A stretch of 64,000 nucleotides of DNA, from positions 2,875,187-2,939,186 of the forward strand of contig CAXXLQ010000004.1 of NCBI GenBank assembly GCA_963668695.2, written 5' to 3'. The stretch comes from Vicinamibacteria bacterium. GTDB taxonomy: Bacteria > Acidobacteriota > Vicinamibacteria > Marinacidobacterales > Marinacidobacteraceae. The notes beneath the pieces were generated by a model. That model did not search any database. It worked only from the letters and a program-made list of their open reading frames with translations, and had not been told where the DNA came from. A program made the translations under genes and the position numbers. Below are positions 7,144 to 58,124 of the stretch, piece by piece. The first letter of the stretch is position 1; each line of letters opens with the position of its first letter.

Positions 7144-8763
7144 ATGTCCGAACTCCGGGTGGCCGCCGCCGAGGAGCGCGCCGCAGCCCTCCGGATCGAA
7201 CTGGAGGCGGTGAGGCGCCTGCTCGCCGGACTGCCGGATCCTCCGGAGCCGCTCACCTCCGGCGAGCTGGCCGCGCGTGCCCTGGCTCCGGTTGCGAGGC
7301 GCCCGATCCGGCAGATCCCGATCCGGCAGATGCCGGCCCGGCAGATCCCGACCCGGCAGATCCCCGCACCGCCGGCGGATTCCGCACCCGGGACCATCGC
7401 CGCCGCGCGGTCCGGGCTGGCTGCGGGCCGCATCTCGCCGGTGGACCTGGTGGAGGAGGCGCTCGAACGGGCGCGGGCGTCCGAAGGACTCGGGGCGTTT
7501 CTTCTCCTCCGGGAGGAGGAGGCGCTCGCCGAGGCGCGCCGCGCGACCGAGTCGTTCGCAGCGGTCGGGCGGGGCGAGGCCGGCGCGCGCCCGCTCCTCG
7601 GGATTCCGCTCAGCGTCAAGGACATCGTTGACGTTGCCGGATTGACCACCACCTCGGGGTCGAAGTTCCCGCACGAGGCGACCCGGAGCGCACCGGCCTG
7701 GCAGGCGCTCGCCGACGCCGGGGCCATTCTGCTCGGCAAGAACAACCTGCAGGAGTTCGCCTTCGGGGTCAGCGGCGACAACCCGACCTTCGGCCGCACG
7801 CGAAACCCCCACGATCCGGGGCGCATCCCGGGTGGGTCGTCTTCGGGTTCGGCGGTGGCGGTGGCCGCCGGCGTCGGCTACGGATCGGTCGGGAGCGACA
7901 CGGGAGGCTCCATCCGGATCCCGGCGGGGCTCACCGGGGTTTTCGGATTGAAGCCGTCGTACGGCGTCGTCTCGCGGGCCGGGGTTACGCCGCTGTCGTG
8001 GAGCCTCGACCACGTCGGGCCGATCGCCCGGAGCGCGGGCGACATCGCCGCCCTCTTCGAGGCACTTTCCGCCGTGCCGGCGGTGCCGCCGCCGAGCCGT
8101 GGGCGGGAGGACTCGCAGCCGCTCGCGGGACTGCGGGTCGGAGTTCCCCTCGATTTCTTCTACACCGACCTGAGCCGGGACGCCCGCCGGGCGGCGGAGA
8201 GTGTGGTGGCGGACCTCGTCGGGCTCGGTGCCGAACGCATCGAGGTGCGGATCCCGGAAGTGGAACTGGGCGGCGTATGCCGCAACGTGCTCGCCTTCAC
8301 GGAGGCCGCGGCGGTGCATCGCGAGCGGCTCGCCGCGCGGCCGGACGACTTCAGCGAGGACGTGCGCCGGCTCCTGGAACTCGGCGGCGTGCTGTCCGCC
8401 GGCGACCTCCTCACGGCGCTCTGCTGCCGGCGATTCGTCACCGACGCCTTCACCCGGCTGTTCGACACCGTGGACATCCTGGCGGTTCCGACCACGCCCG
8501 CGGGGGCTCCGGAAGCGGGGGAGCCGCTGCTGGCCACCGGGGAAGAGATCCGTCCCGGACTCATCCGGCTGGTCGGCCCTTTCAACTTCACGGGCCTGCC
8601 CGCGCTTCAGGTTCCGGCAGGGTTCGATGCGCTCGGGATGCCGCTCGGGGCGCAGCTCGTTGCCGGCCCCGGGCAGGACGTCACGGCGATCCGGGTGGCG
8701 GCGTGGTTGGAAACGAGCGGCGCCATCCGGGCGCGCCCGCCGCCCTTCGGAACGTCAATCTGA
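7144..8763 (+). CDS. amidase-signature family enzyme (GatA-like amidase) with repeat-bearing N-terminal extension
   Basis: Amidase signature GGSSSGSAVAVAAGVGYGSVGSDTGGSIRIPA. The typical N-terminal helix ISPVDLVEEALERA is preceded by ~80 extra residues that include the IRQIP-type repeats. Confidence 0.88.
   Translation: MSELRVAAAEERAAALRIELEAVRRLLAGLPDPPEPLTSGELAARALAPVARRPIRQIPIRQMPARQIPTRQIPAPPADSAPGTIAAARSGLAAGRISPVDLVEEALERARASEGLGAFLLLREEEALAEARRATESFAAVGRGEAGARPLLGIPLSVKDIVDVAGLTTTSGSKFPHEATRSAPAWQALADAGAILLGKNNLQEFAFGVSGDNPTFGRTRNPHDPGRIPGGSSSGSAVAVAAGVGYGSVGSDTGGSIRIPAGLTGVFGLKPSYGVVSRAGVTPLSWSLDHVGPIARSAGDIAALFEALSAVPAVPPPSRGREDSQPLAGLRVGVPLDFFYTDLSRDARRAAESVVADLVGLGAERIEVRIPEVELGGVCRNVLAFTEAAAVHRERLAARPDDFSEDVRRLLELGGVLSAGDLLTALCCRRFVTDAFTRLFDTVDILAVPTTPAGAPEAGEPLLATGEEIRPGLIRLVGPFNFTGLPALQVPAGFDALGMPLGAQLVAGPGQDVTAIRVAAWLETSGAIRARPPPFGTSI
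7303..7362 (+). repeat. 4 x 15-bp in-frame tandem repeat (CCGATCCGGCAGATC) inside the amidase 5-prime extension
   Basis: Direct reading gives ccgatccggcagatc / ccgatccggcagatg / ccggcccggcagatc / ccgacccggcagatc, which encodes P-I-R-Q-I-like pentapeptides. Confidence 0.9.
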
Positions 8764-8767
8764 CTGC

Positions 8768-9109
8768 TAGCAGCCGGTGGGCAAAGTGACGTGAGCGCCG
8801 AGAGCGGTGAGGCGCCCGGCTGACAAGGCGCGTGAGGGAGGAATACCGGGTGTATTTCGACCGAAGCGCAACGATGAGCGGCGCGAAGCGACGCGTTTCA
8901 GCCGGGATGGATCGCCGCTCGAACGCCGTGTGGGTTTTGCCACAGGCTGCTAAGCAGCGCGTTTCAGCCGGGATGGATCGCCGCTCGCTTCCGGAGCGGG
9001 GCGCTAGCACCGCGGAGACCCCGGAGCGGAAGAGACGGGGGACGGGGCTGCCCGACCCCCATCTCTGCTGGCTCGGGAACGCCGCGTGACCTTGTCTACC
9101 GGCTGCTAA
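8768..9109. repeat. Mosaic MITE/REP-like element locus R1 (two units)
   Basis: Unit 1 is TAGCAGCCGGTGGGCAAAGTG ... conserved core ... GGGTTTTGCCACAGGCTGCTAA (8768-8953). Unit 2 runs from 8951 to ACCGGCTGCTAA at 9109. It fills nearly the whole amidase-fabI spacer. Confidence 0.85.
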
Positions 9110-9121
9110 ATTGGGAGCAAC

Positions 9122-9919
9122 GTGCTACTGGAAAAGAAACGAGGGCTGATCGTCGGGGTCGCGAACCACCGCTCCTTTGCGTGGGGCATCGCCCGGTCTA
9201 CGGCGCGCGAGGGCGCCGAGCTCGCCCTCAGCTTCCAGAACGAGCGGCTCCAGCGCAATGTGGACAAGCTGGCGGCCGGGCTCCCGGGGACCATCACCTT
9301 TCCGCTCGACGTCTCGAGCGAAGAGCAGTTGGAGCGCGCGGTCGAGACCGTCCGGGAACGTTTCGGCGGGCTTGACTTCCTGGTCCACGCCGTCGCCTAC
9401 GCGCTGCGCGAGGACCTCAAGGGCGATTTCGTTTCCACCTCCCGCGAAGGGTTCCGGGTGGCCCACGACATCTCGGTCTATTCGCTGACGGCGCTGGTCC
9501 GGCACTTCGCGCCGCTGCTCGAGGCGGACGGAGGCGGTTCGGCCCTGACCCTCAGCTACCTGGGAGGCGAGCGGGCGGTTCCCCACTACAACGTGATGGG
9601 GGTGGCCAAGGCGGCGCTCGAGTCCTCGGTCCGTTACCTGGCCAGCGACCTGGGTCCGCGCGGCGTTCGGGTGAACGCGATTTCGGCAGGCCCGGCAAAG
9701 ACGCTCGCCGCCTCGGGAGTCTCCGGAATCGGAAAAATGGTGGAGCACTACCGCGAATACGCGCCGCTCCGCGCCGGCACCGATCCGATGGAAGTGGGAG
9801 ACGCGGCGGCGTTCCTCCTGTCCGACGCCGCGCGCGGAATTACCGGCGAAGTGCTGCATGTGGACAGCGGATTTCACGCGCTGGGCGCGACGATTCCCGG
9901 ATTGGGCGTTGGGGCCTAG
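9122..9919 (+). CDS. fabI: enoyl-ACP reductase (NADH)
   Basis: GLIVGVANHRSFAWGIA N-terminus and the Tyr/Lys catalytic region YLGGERAVPHYNVMGVAKAALE. GTG start preceded by GGGAG. Confidence 0.9.
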   Translation: MLLEKKRGLIVGVANHRSFAWGIARSTAREGAELALSFQNERLQRNVDKLAAGLPGTITFPLDVSSEEQLERAVETVRERFGGLDFLVHAVAYALREDLKGDFVSTSREGFRVAHDISVYSLTALVRHFAPLLEADGGGSALTLSYLGGERAVPHYNVMGVAKAALESSVRYLASDLGPRGVRVNAISAGPAKTLAASGVSGIGKMVEHYREYAPLRAGTDPMEVGDAAAFLLSDAARGITGEVLHVDSGFHALGATIPGLGVGA

Positions 9920-18626: not shown

Positions 18627-19113
18627 CAGCCTGTGGTGAAAGCACCCCGCACGAGCCCCAGGAGGTCGCGCGCGGCGAATCCGTCGGTTTGTGTGCGTGC
18701 GGGGCGCTTTCCCCTCCCCACACCCCACCCCCGCGGCGCTGCGCGCCGCGAATGGATGCCTTCCGGGTTTCACCACAGGCTGTTAACAGCCGGTGGTGGA
18801 ATCCGGGTCAGCGCCGAGGCCGGCCAGTTCTTTTGGTGGGGGCGAGGCCCAGTTCTCCCGGTGGGGGTCCGGCTGACAAGGCGCGTGAGGGAGGAGCCCC
18901 CACCGGGAGAACTGGCCCGGGTGTATTTCGACCGAAACGCAACGATGAGCGGCGCGCAGCGACGCGGCTCAGCCGGGATGGATCGCTGGCCGAGCCCCCA
19001 CCGGGAGAACTGGGCCGCGTGGGTTCCACCACCGGCTGTTTGGCCGGGATGGATCGCCGGGCGAGCCCCCACCGGGAGAACTGGGCCGCCTGGGTTTCAC
19101 TACAGGCTGTTAA
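18623..19113. repeat. Mosaic MITE/REP-like element locus R2 (two units, nested 20-nt modules)
   Basis: Unit 1 is TAACAGCCTGTGGTGAAAGC ... GGGTTTCACCACAGGCTGTTAA (to ~18787). Unit 2 then follows, with the conserved core split by CCCCCACCGGGAGAACTGGCC and two extra terminal sub-modules, ending CACTACAGGCTGTTAA. Confidence 0.85.
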
Positions 19114-32928: not shown

Positions 32929-33573
32929 CAACAACCTGTGGTGAAACCCAGGCGGCGTTCAAGCGGCGATCGATCCCGCCGGAATACAACCCGGTATTCC
33001 TCCCTCACGCGCCTTGTCAGCCGGGCCCCCACCGGGAGGACTGGCCCCACCGGGAGAACTGGGCCTCGCCCCCACCGGGAGGACTGGCCGACCTCGGCGC
33101 TCACGTGGGTTCCACCACCGGCTGTTCACCGCGTCGCTTCGCGCCGCTCATCGTTGCGTTTCGGTCGGAATACACCCGGTATTCCTCCCTCACGCGCCTT
33201 GTCAGCCGGGCCCCCACCGGGAGGACTGGCCCCACCGGGAGAACTGGGCCTCGCCCCCACCGGGAGGACTGGCCAACCTCGGCGCTCACGTGGGTTCCAC
33301 CACCGGCTGTTCACCGCGTCGCTTCGCGCCGCTCATCGTTGCGTTTCGGTCGGAATACACCCGGTATTCCTCCCTCACGCGCCTTGTCAGCCGGGCGCCT
33401 CCCCGGCCTCGGCGCTCCCGTGGGCTCCACCACCGGCTGTTCACCGCGCCGCTTCGCTCCGTTCTGCGTTGCGTTTCGGTCGAAATACACCCGGCATTCC
33501 TCCCTCACGCGCCTTGTCAGCCGGGCGCCTCACCGCTCTCGGCGCTCACCCGGGTTCCACCACAGGCTGTTAG
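32929..33573. repeat. Mosaic MITE/REP-like element locus R3 (three tandem ~190-bp copies of the core, reverse orientation)
   Basis: Period ~190 bp (e.g. GGCGCTCACGTGGGTTCCACCACCGGCTGTTCACC recurs at ~33097 and ~33287). Ends CCACCACAGGCTGTTAG, 13 nt before the ilvE ATG. Confidence 0.85.
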
Positions 33574-41535: not shown

Positions 41536-41822
41536 CAGCCGGTGGTGAAACCCAGGCGGCGTTCGGCCAGCGATCCATCCCGGCCAAACAGCCGGTAATG
41601 AAACCCGCGCGGCGTTCGGCGGCGATCCATCCCGGCCAAACAGCCTGTAGTGAAACCCGCGCGGCGTTCGGCGGCGATCCATCCCGGCTGAACCGCGTCG
41701 CTGCGCGCCGCTCGTCGTTGCGTTTCGGTCGAAATACACTCGGTATTCCTCGCTCACGCGCCTTGTCAGCCGGGCGCCTCGCCACTCTCGGCGCTCACGC
41801 CACTTTGCCCACAGGCTGCTAG
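41533..41822. repeat. Mosaic MITE/REP-like element locus R4 (three ~53-nt terminal sub-modules plus core, reverse orientation)
   Basis: TAGCAGCCGGTGGTGAAACCC.. with sub-modules starting at 41536, 41589 and 41641. The core follows, ending ..CACTTTGCCCACAGGCTGCTAG. Confidence 0.88.
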
Positions 41823-44278: not shown

Positions 44279-44550
44279 TGACAGCCGGTGGTGGGACCCA
44301 CGCGACGTTCGGCCGGCGATCCATCCCGGCGAAACAGCCTGTAATGGAACCCGCGCGGCGTTCGGCCGGCGATCCATCCCGGCTGAACCGCGTCGCTACG
44401 CGCCGCGCATCGTTGCGTTTCGGTCGAAATACACTCGGTATTCCTCCCTCACGCGCCTTGTCAGCCGGGCCCCCACCGGGAGAACTGGCCCCACCGGGAG
44501 AACTGGGCCTCGCCGGCCTCGGCGCTCGCGCGGGTCCCACCACCGGCTGT
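44279..44550. repeat. Mosaic MITE/REP-like element locus R5
   Basis: TGACAGCCGGTGGTGGGACCC.. sub-modules, the core (GGCTGAACCGCGTCGCTACGCG..CTTGTCAGCC), tandem CCCACCGGGAGAACTGGCC modules, then ..GGGTCCCACCACCGGCTGT. Confidence 0.85.
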
Positions 44551-53561: not shown

Positions 53562-54075
53562 TAGCAGCCGGTGGTGAAACCCACGCGGCCCAGTTCTCCC
53601 GGTGGGGGCTCGGCCGGCGATCCATCCCGGCCAAACAGCCGGTGGTGGAACCCACGCGGCGTTCGGCCGGCGATCCATCCCAGCCAAACAGCCGGTGGTG
53701 GAACCCACGCGGCGTTCGGCCGGCGATCCATCCCAGCTGAACCGCGTCGCTTCGCGCCGCTCATCGTTGCGTTTCGGTCGGAAAACACCCGGGCCAGTTC
53801 TCCCGGTGGGGGCTCCTCCCTCACGCGCCTTGTCAGCCGGGCGCCTCGCCCCCACCGGGAGGACTGGCCAACCTCGGCGCTCACGTGGGTTCCACCACCG
53901 GCTGTTCACCACTCCGCTTCGCTGCGTTTTGCGTTGCGTTTCGGCCGGAAAACACCCGGGCCAGTTCTCCCGGTGGGGGCTCCTCCCTCACGCGCCTTGT
54001 CAGCCGGGCGCCTCGCCCCCACCGGGAGAACTGGCCGCTCTCGGCGCTCACCCGGGTTCCACCACCGGCTGCTAA
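53562..54075. repeat. Mosaic MITE/REP-like element locus R6 (three sub-modules plus two core copies with nested inserts)
   Basis: Starts TAGCAGCCGGTGGTGAAACCC, with repeated CAGCCGGTGGTGGAACCCACGCGGCGTTCGGCCGGCGATCCATCCC units. Two cores are interrupted by CCGGGCCAGTTCTCCCGGTGGGGGCTCC. Ends ..CCACCACCGGCTGCTAA. Confidence 0.88.
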
Positions 54076-57749: not shown

Positions 57750-58124
57750 CAGCCTGTGGCAAAACCCACGCGGCCCAGTTCTCCCGGTGGGGGCTCGACC
57801 GGCGATCCATCCCGGCTGAACCACTCCGCTTCGCTGCGTTCTGCGTTGCGTTTCGGTCGAAATACACCCGGTATTCCTCCCTCACGCGCCTTGTCAGCCG
57901 GGCCCCCACCGGGAGAACTGGCCCCACCGGGAGAACTGGGCCTCACCGGCCTCGGCGCTCACCCGGGTTTCACCACAGGCTGCCAGGAGCCGGTGGACAA
58001 GGTCGCGCGGTCCGGTTCTCCCGGCGGGGGCTCGAGCGGCGATGCATCCCGACGCAAACACCCCCCACCGGGAGAACCGGACCGCACCATTCTCGGCGCT
58101 CACGCCACGTTGTCCACAGAGTCC
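57747..58124. repeat. Mosaic MITE/REP-like element locus R7 (two units)
   Basis: Unit 1 is TAGCAGCCTGTGGCAAAACCC.. core ..GGGTTTCACCACAGGCTGCC (to ~57984). Unit 2 is GGAGCCGGTGGACAAGGTCGCGCGG ... CGCCACGTTGTCCACAGAGTCC. Confidence 0.85.

Follow-up and report, generated by a model that had tools for sequence, protein, structure and literature searches.

What is the short folded sequence that recurs between the genes of a sponge-associated acidobacterium, and what keeps it conserved? The genome in question (assembly G000; 4.1 Mb, 67.5% G+C) belongs to the phylum Acidobacteriota, class Vicinamibacteria, and the window, that is, the whole 64-kb stretch of DNA analysed here (G000:C4:2875187-2939186), carries at positions 8818-8903 of its plus strand an 86-nt core that an earlier note had read as a structured module of RNA or single-stranded DNA. 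The core string quoted in that note was located at this position with two differing letters (8866 is G, not A, and 8896 is T, not G), because the family consensus had been quoted and not this particular copy. Its recurrence, also claimed there, was readily confirmed: the first 24 nt of the core are found 11 times in the window when up to 3 mismatches are allowed, and shuffled sequences predict none. An iterated nhmmer search over the 4.1-Mb assembly, which is 91.7% complete, retrieved about 654 copies, corresponding to 524 distinct sequences. With the 2,920 genes delimited in G000 by a purpose-built codon-usage gene caller, 646 of the 654 copies (99%) are intergenic, and cores occupy 476 of 2,916 intergenic gaps (16%). 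The 24-mer has exact matches in genomes that bear the names Candidatus Marinacidobacterium and Vicinamibacteria bacterium, sponge-derived MAGs among them. The copies located in the window are as follows:

8818-8903, plus strand: the core as reported, a three-way junction of helices P1, P2 and P3
18871-18974, plus strand: core copy with an 18-nt insert in the P2 tip
33122-33207, minus strand: core copy in a head-to-tail array, with more copies at about 33307-33392 and 33437-33522
ending at 33022: truncated core copy of the same head-to-tail array
41686-41771, minus strand: core copy
44381-44466, minus strand: core copy
53735-53838, minus strand: core copy with the 18-nt insert, with a second such copy at about 53902-54005
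57814-57899, minus strand: core copy

Fold of the core and covariation of its pairs

The folding of the core on the given strand into three helices, P1, P2 and P3, is strongly supported, and the helices are placed in the reported copy as follows:

8815-8823, plus strand: 5' strand of P1 (CCCGGCTGA), pairing with 8898-8906
8898-8906, plus strand: 3' strand of P1 (TCAGCCGGG)
8830-8869, plus strand: P2, an irregular helix with a GCGT/RCGC base, tandem G.A, GG/CC, tandem G.A and a GGAATAC/GTATTTC tip
8840-8858, plus strand: tip hairpin of P2 (the 7-bp hairpin of the earlier note), site of the 18-nt insert in other copies
8878-8894, plus strand: P3, a 7-bp stem of highly variable sequence, capped by a G-N-A triloop (GCGAAGC at 8883-8889), in the marine family only

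The GGCTGA/TCAGCC stem that was said to close the core is indeed present, with a true length of 9 bp (CCCGGCTGA/TCAGCCGGG, or CCCGGCUGA/UCAGCCGGG in RNA letters), and the stem formed between the two arms of the surrounding element runs on into it. In tandem arrays the 3' side of this stem is GAACAGCC in place of TCAGCCGGG, and compensatory variants of P1 occur in other genomes (GGCTGG/CCAGCC, GTCTGA/TCAGAC and GCCTGA/TCAGGC). P2 comprises about 17 steps, its Watson-Crick stretches being interrupted by two or three tandem G.A/A.G pairs. The GGAATAC-CGGGT-GTATTTC hairpin described earlier does exist, but as the tip of this longer helix and not as a self-standing 7-bp unit; its variants are pairing-compatible, as had been noticed (e.g., G.U to G-C), and the larger inserts observed in one of its arms correspond to one net insert of 18 nt at a single site, present in about 295-315 copies. 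The strings GCGAAGC, GCGCAGC and GCGTAGC were likewise seen, as a G-N-A triloop on P3, but the stable mini-hairpin to which they had been ascribed is not conserved beyond the genus: the loop is GUGAAAC, CGCUUUGCG or a longer hairpin in other genera, and P3 is missing from most of the class. The mini-hairpin with GCGAAGC represents a variant, at the genus level, of a stem-loop that is hypervariable.

Covariation, the check that the earlier note had proposed for this fold, was assessed in two independent alignments against a pre-specified structure, and in both of them compensatory changes keep the pairing of a structured single-strand module, with none of 500 shuffles reaching the observed score. 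In alignment A1, with 91 sequences from several genera, 93.5% of cells are paired, vs 31-46% with slid partners, and both sides have changed in 12 pairs, 6 of the 7 pairs of P3 among them. Alignment A2, with 78 distinct short-core sequences from three distant genomes (G100, G085 and G118), was aligned by a covariance model already carrying most of the tested pairs, and gave 93.9% of cells paired, vs 27-40% with slid partners, with both sides changed in 18 of 26 pairs (10 of 12 in P2); two lower P2 pairs lie outside that model, 24-62 (CG 58, UA 15) and 27-59 (CG 46, GC 9). Within G000, the top non-adjacent association is that of core columns 16 and 49 (TA 407, CG 169, AT 6, TG 27, CA 20), and several P3 pairs swap Watson-Crick types. 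Furthermore, the outer helix was recovered independently by RNAalifold, with covariation. G.U pairs exceed A.C mismatches (91:26 and 137:50), the tandem G.A steps are conserved, and the plus strand folds better than the minus strand (-45.3 vs -34.8 and -44.0 vs -38.0 kcal/mol), all of which argues for a fold on the given strand and not for a symmetric duplex feature.

In about half of the G000 copies, the 18-nt insert replaces part of the 5' arm of the P2 tip, and the fold of an insert-bearing copy was no better than that of shuffled sequence (z = -0.21), from which the canonical fold appears to be dispensable in G000. Alternatively, the insert can pair with its complement in a module immediately upstream, which 204 of 295 insert copies possess. 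Regarding known RNA families, no Rfam match was obtained at gathering thresholds across the whole window, and around the element only a chance 9.6-bit match appeared with E values up to 5. Inspection by eye also discarded a hammerhead core (CUGANGA...GAAA), a k-turn, box C/D and an integron attC (R''/R' boxes), none of which suits the conserved positions.

The surrounding miniature transposon and its partner insertion sequence

The core is embedded in a larger element whose termini, RCAGCCKGTGG...CCACMGGCTGY, are terminal inverted repeats (TIRs) followed by long, complementary arms; end-type matches in G000 amount to 475 on the left and 446 on the right. At the reported locus the following were identified:

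8770-8950, plus strand: complete miniature transposon (MITE; GCAGCC...GGCTGC), with TA at 8768-8769 and 8951-8952
8953-9106, plus strand: second, rearranged element at that insertion site, with TA after it at 9107-9108

Canonical elements measure 187 nt, and longer ones 187 + 18n nt, with n = 1-5 copies of an 18-nt module. As a whole, the element folds as a single long hairpin (-97.9 kcal/mol, z = -5.2 on the plus strand; -78.5 kcal/mol on the other). It is non-coding, its lone open frame differing between the long and short forms of the core. At the orthologous locus, the congeneric genomes G001, G008 and G010 display an empty site with a single TA (ACTGC-TA-AATTGG), and the site is filled in G004 and G014. 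Of 103 elements with TA on both sides, 87 have inner terminal bases that complement each other, and a Y-TA-R target with a 2-bp TA duplication fits these observations; some copies may have a 4-bp YTAR duplication instead. Terminal inverted repeats, a TA duplication with presence/absence polymorphism, small size, non-coding sequence and multiple copies were thus all found, as in a MITE.

Several further observations concern the architecture of the element. Occupancy of the reported site did not follow relatedness, the nearest genome by flank identity (G001, 95-96%) being empty, and G004 (84-89%) and G014 (77-85%) filled; this reflects either repeated insertion at one TA beside the amidase stop codon or precise loss. 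The 18-nt module (CCAGTTCTCCCGGTGGGG) has 1,631 occurrences in G000 with up to 2 mismatches, in both orientations, and 1,292 of them lie within 150 nt of a core. Each element holds 0-5 modules, with exact 18-nt length steps and often at mirrored complementary positions; in the window, module sites were located as follows:

18826-19085: 18-nt module sites
44467-44502: 18-nt module sites
53584-53614: 18-nt module sites
57769-57935: 18-nt module sites

Head-to-tail arrays of units made of the core and the left arm extend over 32929-33573 and 53735-54075, with periods of 185, 130 and 167 nt. At the array junctions, the 3' side of the core runs straight into the next left end (GGTGAACAGCC), which suggests that unequal recombination, and not transposition, was the amplification route of these arrays.

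A search for a partner insertion sequence (IS), which started from the IS end CAGCCCGTGGTGAAA, brought up among the solo element ends of G100 a 1.48-kb TA-flanked IS with ends GTAGCCCGTGGTGAAAC and GCAGCCCGTGGCAG. Its transposase matches Pfam DUF772 and, weakly, DDE_Tnp_1, and the best NCBIfam match was IS1182; the split gene gave E = 5e-26 and 1e-7 against NF033551, below the 270-bit cut-off because it is divided into two ORFs. These frames encode 214 and 245 aa (G100:C1:3435750-3438000; L335:749-2231), and correspond either to a frameshifted pseudogene or to programmed frameshifting. Among the 151 genomes sampled from the class, 26 have intact relatives with frames of 465-487 aa, that of the G001 element being 487 aa, and in sister species the IS measures 1.46-1.52 kb with TA on its flanks. 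The IS ends are TA followed by GCAGCCTGTGGTGGAAAG and TA followed by ACAGCCTGTGGTGAAAC in G001 and G010, which belong to the genus of the window, and GCAGCCCGTGGTGAAAG in G118, G046, G124 and G078. The MITE termini, TA followed by RCAGCCKGTGGTGRAAC, match these ends of IS1182-like elements of the IS5 superfamily (DUF772 + DDE); the sequence in common covers the first 16-18 nt only, and the IS loci lack the core. Further, the core is present in 20 of the 26 genomes with the IS, vs 56 of the 125 without it (Fisher p = 0.004). No cognate IS1182-like IS was found in the G000 assembly (91.7% complete), where element-end pairs lying 0.6-4 kb apart enclose ordinary genes (Fic, atpC and prfA) and no full-length IS. 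Presumably, an IS1182-like element supplies the transposase in trans.

Two other candidate mobilisers were considered and rejected. The ends of the IS630 copies in G000 and related genomes (GTGTCGTGTCAC, GTGTGGTGTCCC, GTGGACTGTAACA and similar) are unlike those of the element, and none of the IS630 loci displayed element-matching ends or a core; the element end type GTGTCCCGTCTCGGAAG resembles an IS630 end of G098 at 14 of 17 positions, a likeness that is suggestive only. A RAYT-driven REP/BIME system was discarded, with no PF01797 (Y1 transposase) match in G000 at 91.7% completeness. IS630 copies were also seen abutting element ends exactly, with the TA in common, at three ends in G027 (two left and one right; G027:C3:455097, 1399651 and 1017366), and abutting elements on both sides in G000 (G000:C4:667039-668195, L119); IS630 seems to favour, as its target, the CTAG/TTAA created where elements end. 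Several solo element ends of G100:C1 (L329-L334 and L336) are 25-35 nt long, with CTAG beside them and unrelated unique sequence after, and most solo ends of G100 are remnants of truncated elements.

Distribution, conservation and orientation of the core

A covariance model built from the core (R1) was used for searches across the class and the phylum. The module is multicopy in 76 of 151 sampled Vicinamibacteria genomes, representing 40 of 76 genera, and beyond the class, among about 139 genomes of the phylum, R1 detected it in only 5. The widespread form consists of P1 and P2 alone, spans about 66 nt between invariant GAGGCGCCC and GGGATGCATCG, and is invariably found within an element about 170 nt long with TA on its flanks; P3 was added in the marine family. 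The end types differ by lineage (CAGCC.GTGGTGAAAC, GTGCCGTGGTCCATAAA and GTGTCCCGTCTCGGAAG) and the arms are alignable throughout, hence the core was kept while the ends diverged. No similar sequence was found in plasmid and phage collections, and the literature searched contained nothing about this genus or about MITEs in such bacteria.

No other part of the element is as well conserved as the core. In canonical G000 elements, identity to the consensus is 0.975 in the 5' half of the core and 0.94-0.95 in the inner arms, decreasing to 0.87-0.89 in the TIRs and 0.856 in P3. Individual copies nevertheless decay nearly equally in both: at otherwise conserved columns the mismatch rate was 0.0164 for the core vs 0.0198 for the arms, with 0.0380 for the TIRs. 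Variants private to one or two copies accumulate at 0.0029 per site per copy in the core vs 0.0027-0.0032 in the arms, in a test of modest power (about 60 events per class) in which the arms may be constrained too. The mismatch rate of the core is 0.0188 at paired and 0.0187 at unpaired positions, decayed arms go with decayed cores (Spearman 0.28), and at the reported site the copy of G004 retains neither the pattern of the P2 5' strand nor P3. Within the modest power of the rare-variant test, the data taken together point to conservation of the core among spreading lineages, with no strong protection of inserted copies. Such a combination is predicted by a requirement in cis for propagation or tolerance of the element, and not by a regulator maintained by the host.

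Orientation with respect to the neighbouring genes was not random in G000. In gaps between co-directional genes, cores are antisense at 222 loci vs sense at 97 (p = 2e-12), a ratio observed for genes of the leading strand (136:59) as well as of the lagging strand (81:37), and no replication-strand bias of the core was detected in this genome (247 vs 213). The bias was uniform across insert status, module number, junction type and gap length, none of which affected it. Other species of the genus displayed 40:23, and the three distant short-form genomes 22:31, that is, no bias. The median distance from the stop codon to the core is 96 nt, with about 45 nt from the stop codon to the element end, and convergent gaps were not enriched in cores. 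The terminator function contemplated in the earlier note found no backing, as a scan of 8600-9200 on both strands retrieved no site with the GC-rich hairpin and T run of an intrinsic terminator; no promoter-like or sigma-70-like signal was found either in the scan of the element region. The long form has, in sum, a transcription-related asymmetry, which keeps open an RNA-level effect as a rival or additional layer.

Possible roles of the fold and comparison with known elements

Among the functions named in the earlier note, that of a transposition substrate or cis element suits the core best, because the core is conserved among propagating lineages while single inserted copies decay. We therefore consider, at even chances, that the conserved fold at the centre of this non-coding MITE is a cis-acting module selected during the spread of the element. 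An IS1182-like transposase would move the MITE in trans through the common termini; the fold may help the single-stranded or extruded element to fold back and bring both ends together, may bind a host or transposase factor, or may make insertions tolerable. In any of these cases, we infer a cis module and not a host regulator maintained locus by locus. DDE transposases of the IS5 superfamily are not known to require folded single strands, and the 70:30 orientation bias in the genus hints at an RNA-level effect that a purely DNA-level role does not predict. A more specific possibility, which we hold tentatively and with more doubt than confidence, is that the selected unit is the internal module of G.A helix and junction, acting, in single-stranded DNA or RNA, as a portable motif for protein binding. 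Such a module would, for example, bring to the folded element a factor from the host or one associated with the transposase, and would have stayed nearly unchanged across Vicinamibacteria while its carrier swapped or remodelled the ends bound by the transposase.

Other explanations place the function outside the spread of the element, or dispense with it. It is rather unlikely that the fold works as RNA within host transcripts, as a stabiliser of mRNA ends, an insulator against Rho or RNase, or a weak terminator kept by the host. The strand-specific structure, with its tandem G.A pairs and G.U excess, would suit this role, as would the location of elements just past stop codons and an orientation bias that tracks transcription and not replication, both in G000 and elsewhere in the genus; however, the better-folding strand is the one found less often in the mRNA sense, the distant genomes are unbiased, the scans gave neither terminator-like nor promoter-like signals, convergent gaps are not enriched, and the core of inserted copies decays about as fast as the arms. 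The opposite explanation, by which the core would be functionless and would reflect recent spread, with the 'compensatory' changes arising from template switching in a quasi-palindrome as one arm is copied onto the other, appears improbable. The G000 copies are young, with about 0.3% private variants per site, the entire element is an imperfect palindrome, and the 18-nt modules often occupy mirrored, complementary positions; nevertheless, TIRs and arms have diverged between families far more than the core, the tandem G.A steps and unpaired junction bases are near-invariant across the class and have not been 'corrected' to perfect pairs, and G.U pairs outnumber A.C mismatches. That each element is a gene for a small RNA or a micro-peptide is hardly credible, in spite of the strong fold on one strand and of an SD-like GGGAGGA located 7 nt before the GTG of a 34-codon frame that ends at the terminal TAA/TAG: no sigma-70-like promoter was found in the element region, the SD-like string is not conserved, being GAGTGAGC or GAGGGCGA in other genera, and the homologous segment GGGATGCATCG is read in one frame in the long form and in another in the short form, so that no peptide is conserved.

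In its general features the element is an ordinary MITE and can be set beside Correia, ERIC and BOX. MITEs normally conserve their ends while their interiors drift; the unusual trait of the Vicinamibacteria element is an interior constituted by a class-wide, covarying and strand-specific fold that is better conserved than the ends and matches no described RNA family. Correia or NEMIS elements of Neisseria are non-coding, with inverted ends, TA flanks and hundreds of intergenic copies, often co-transcribed with their neighbours, and the Tourist and mPing MITEs are moved by PIF/Harbinger transposases, eukaryotic relatives of IS5. The likeness to Correia resides in size (both about 100-190 nt), non-coding sequence, TA flanks and a long hairpin; in contrast, Correia elements contain pieces of promoters and a site for IHF, have no known cognate transposase and are unrelated in sequence, whereas the Vicinamibacteria element has a covarying junction centre with tandem G.A pairs, spread over the class, and an IS partner that can be named. 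Tourist and mPing are similarly non-autonomous, have only their termini in common with an IS5-superfamily transposon and insert at short TA-containing targets, but they are eukaryotic, generate a 3-bp TWA duplication, and no conserved folded core has been reported for them. The REP/BIME system with RAYT resembles the present one in that short modules of either orientation form mosaics that are very abundant between genes, and differs in that the Vicinamibacteria element has TIRs, a TA duplication and no replication-orientation bias, with no Y1 transposase (RAYT/IS200) in G000. The size, TA flanks, copy numbers, hairpin and co-transcription of Correia and NEMIS are summarised in PMC3049150 and PMC2229807. 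The ERIC or IRU elements of enterobacteria are also imperfect palindromes at TA, with size variants derived from insertions at fixed internal sites, and orientation-dependent effects on transcripts have been reported for them (cited in PMC3049150); they differ in their unrelated sequence and host and far fewer copies, and no class-wide structured core has been described. BOX/RUP of Streptococcus pneumoniae are modular, with internal modules amplified in tandem (boxB, as compared with the core units and 18-nt modules), and their pairing inverted ends and a proposed mobilisation in trans by a resident IS have been described (PMC3049150); these elements, however, are AT-rich and confined to a few streptococci, and it is in the Vicinamibacteria element that the internal module exceeds the ends in conservation.

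If the fold were needed for movement, a DDE-type miniature transposon would depend on an internal structured module; if the core were a protein-binding motif, a DDE-type MITE would both carry and need a functional nucleic-acid motif that is new. For genome annotation, the element lies against stop and start codons in many places, and it will confuse the assignment of gene starts and of non-coding RNAs, and the R1 covariance model can be used to mask it.
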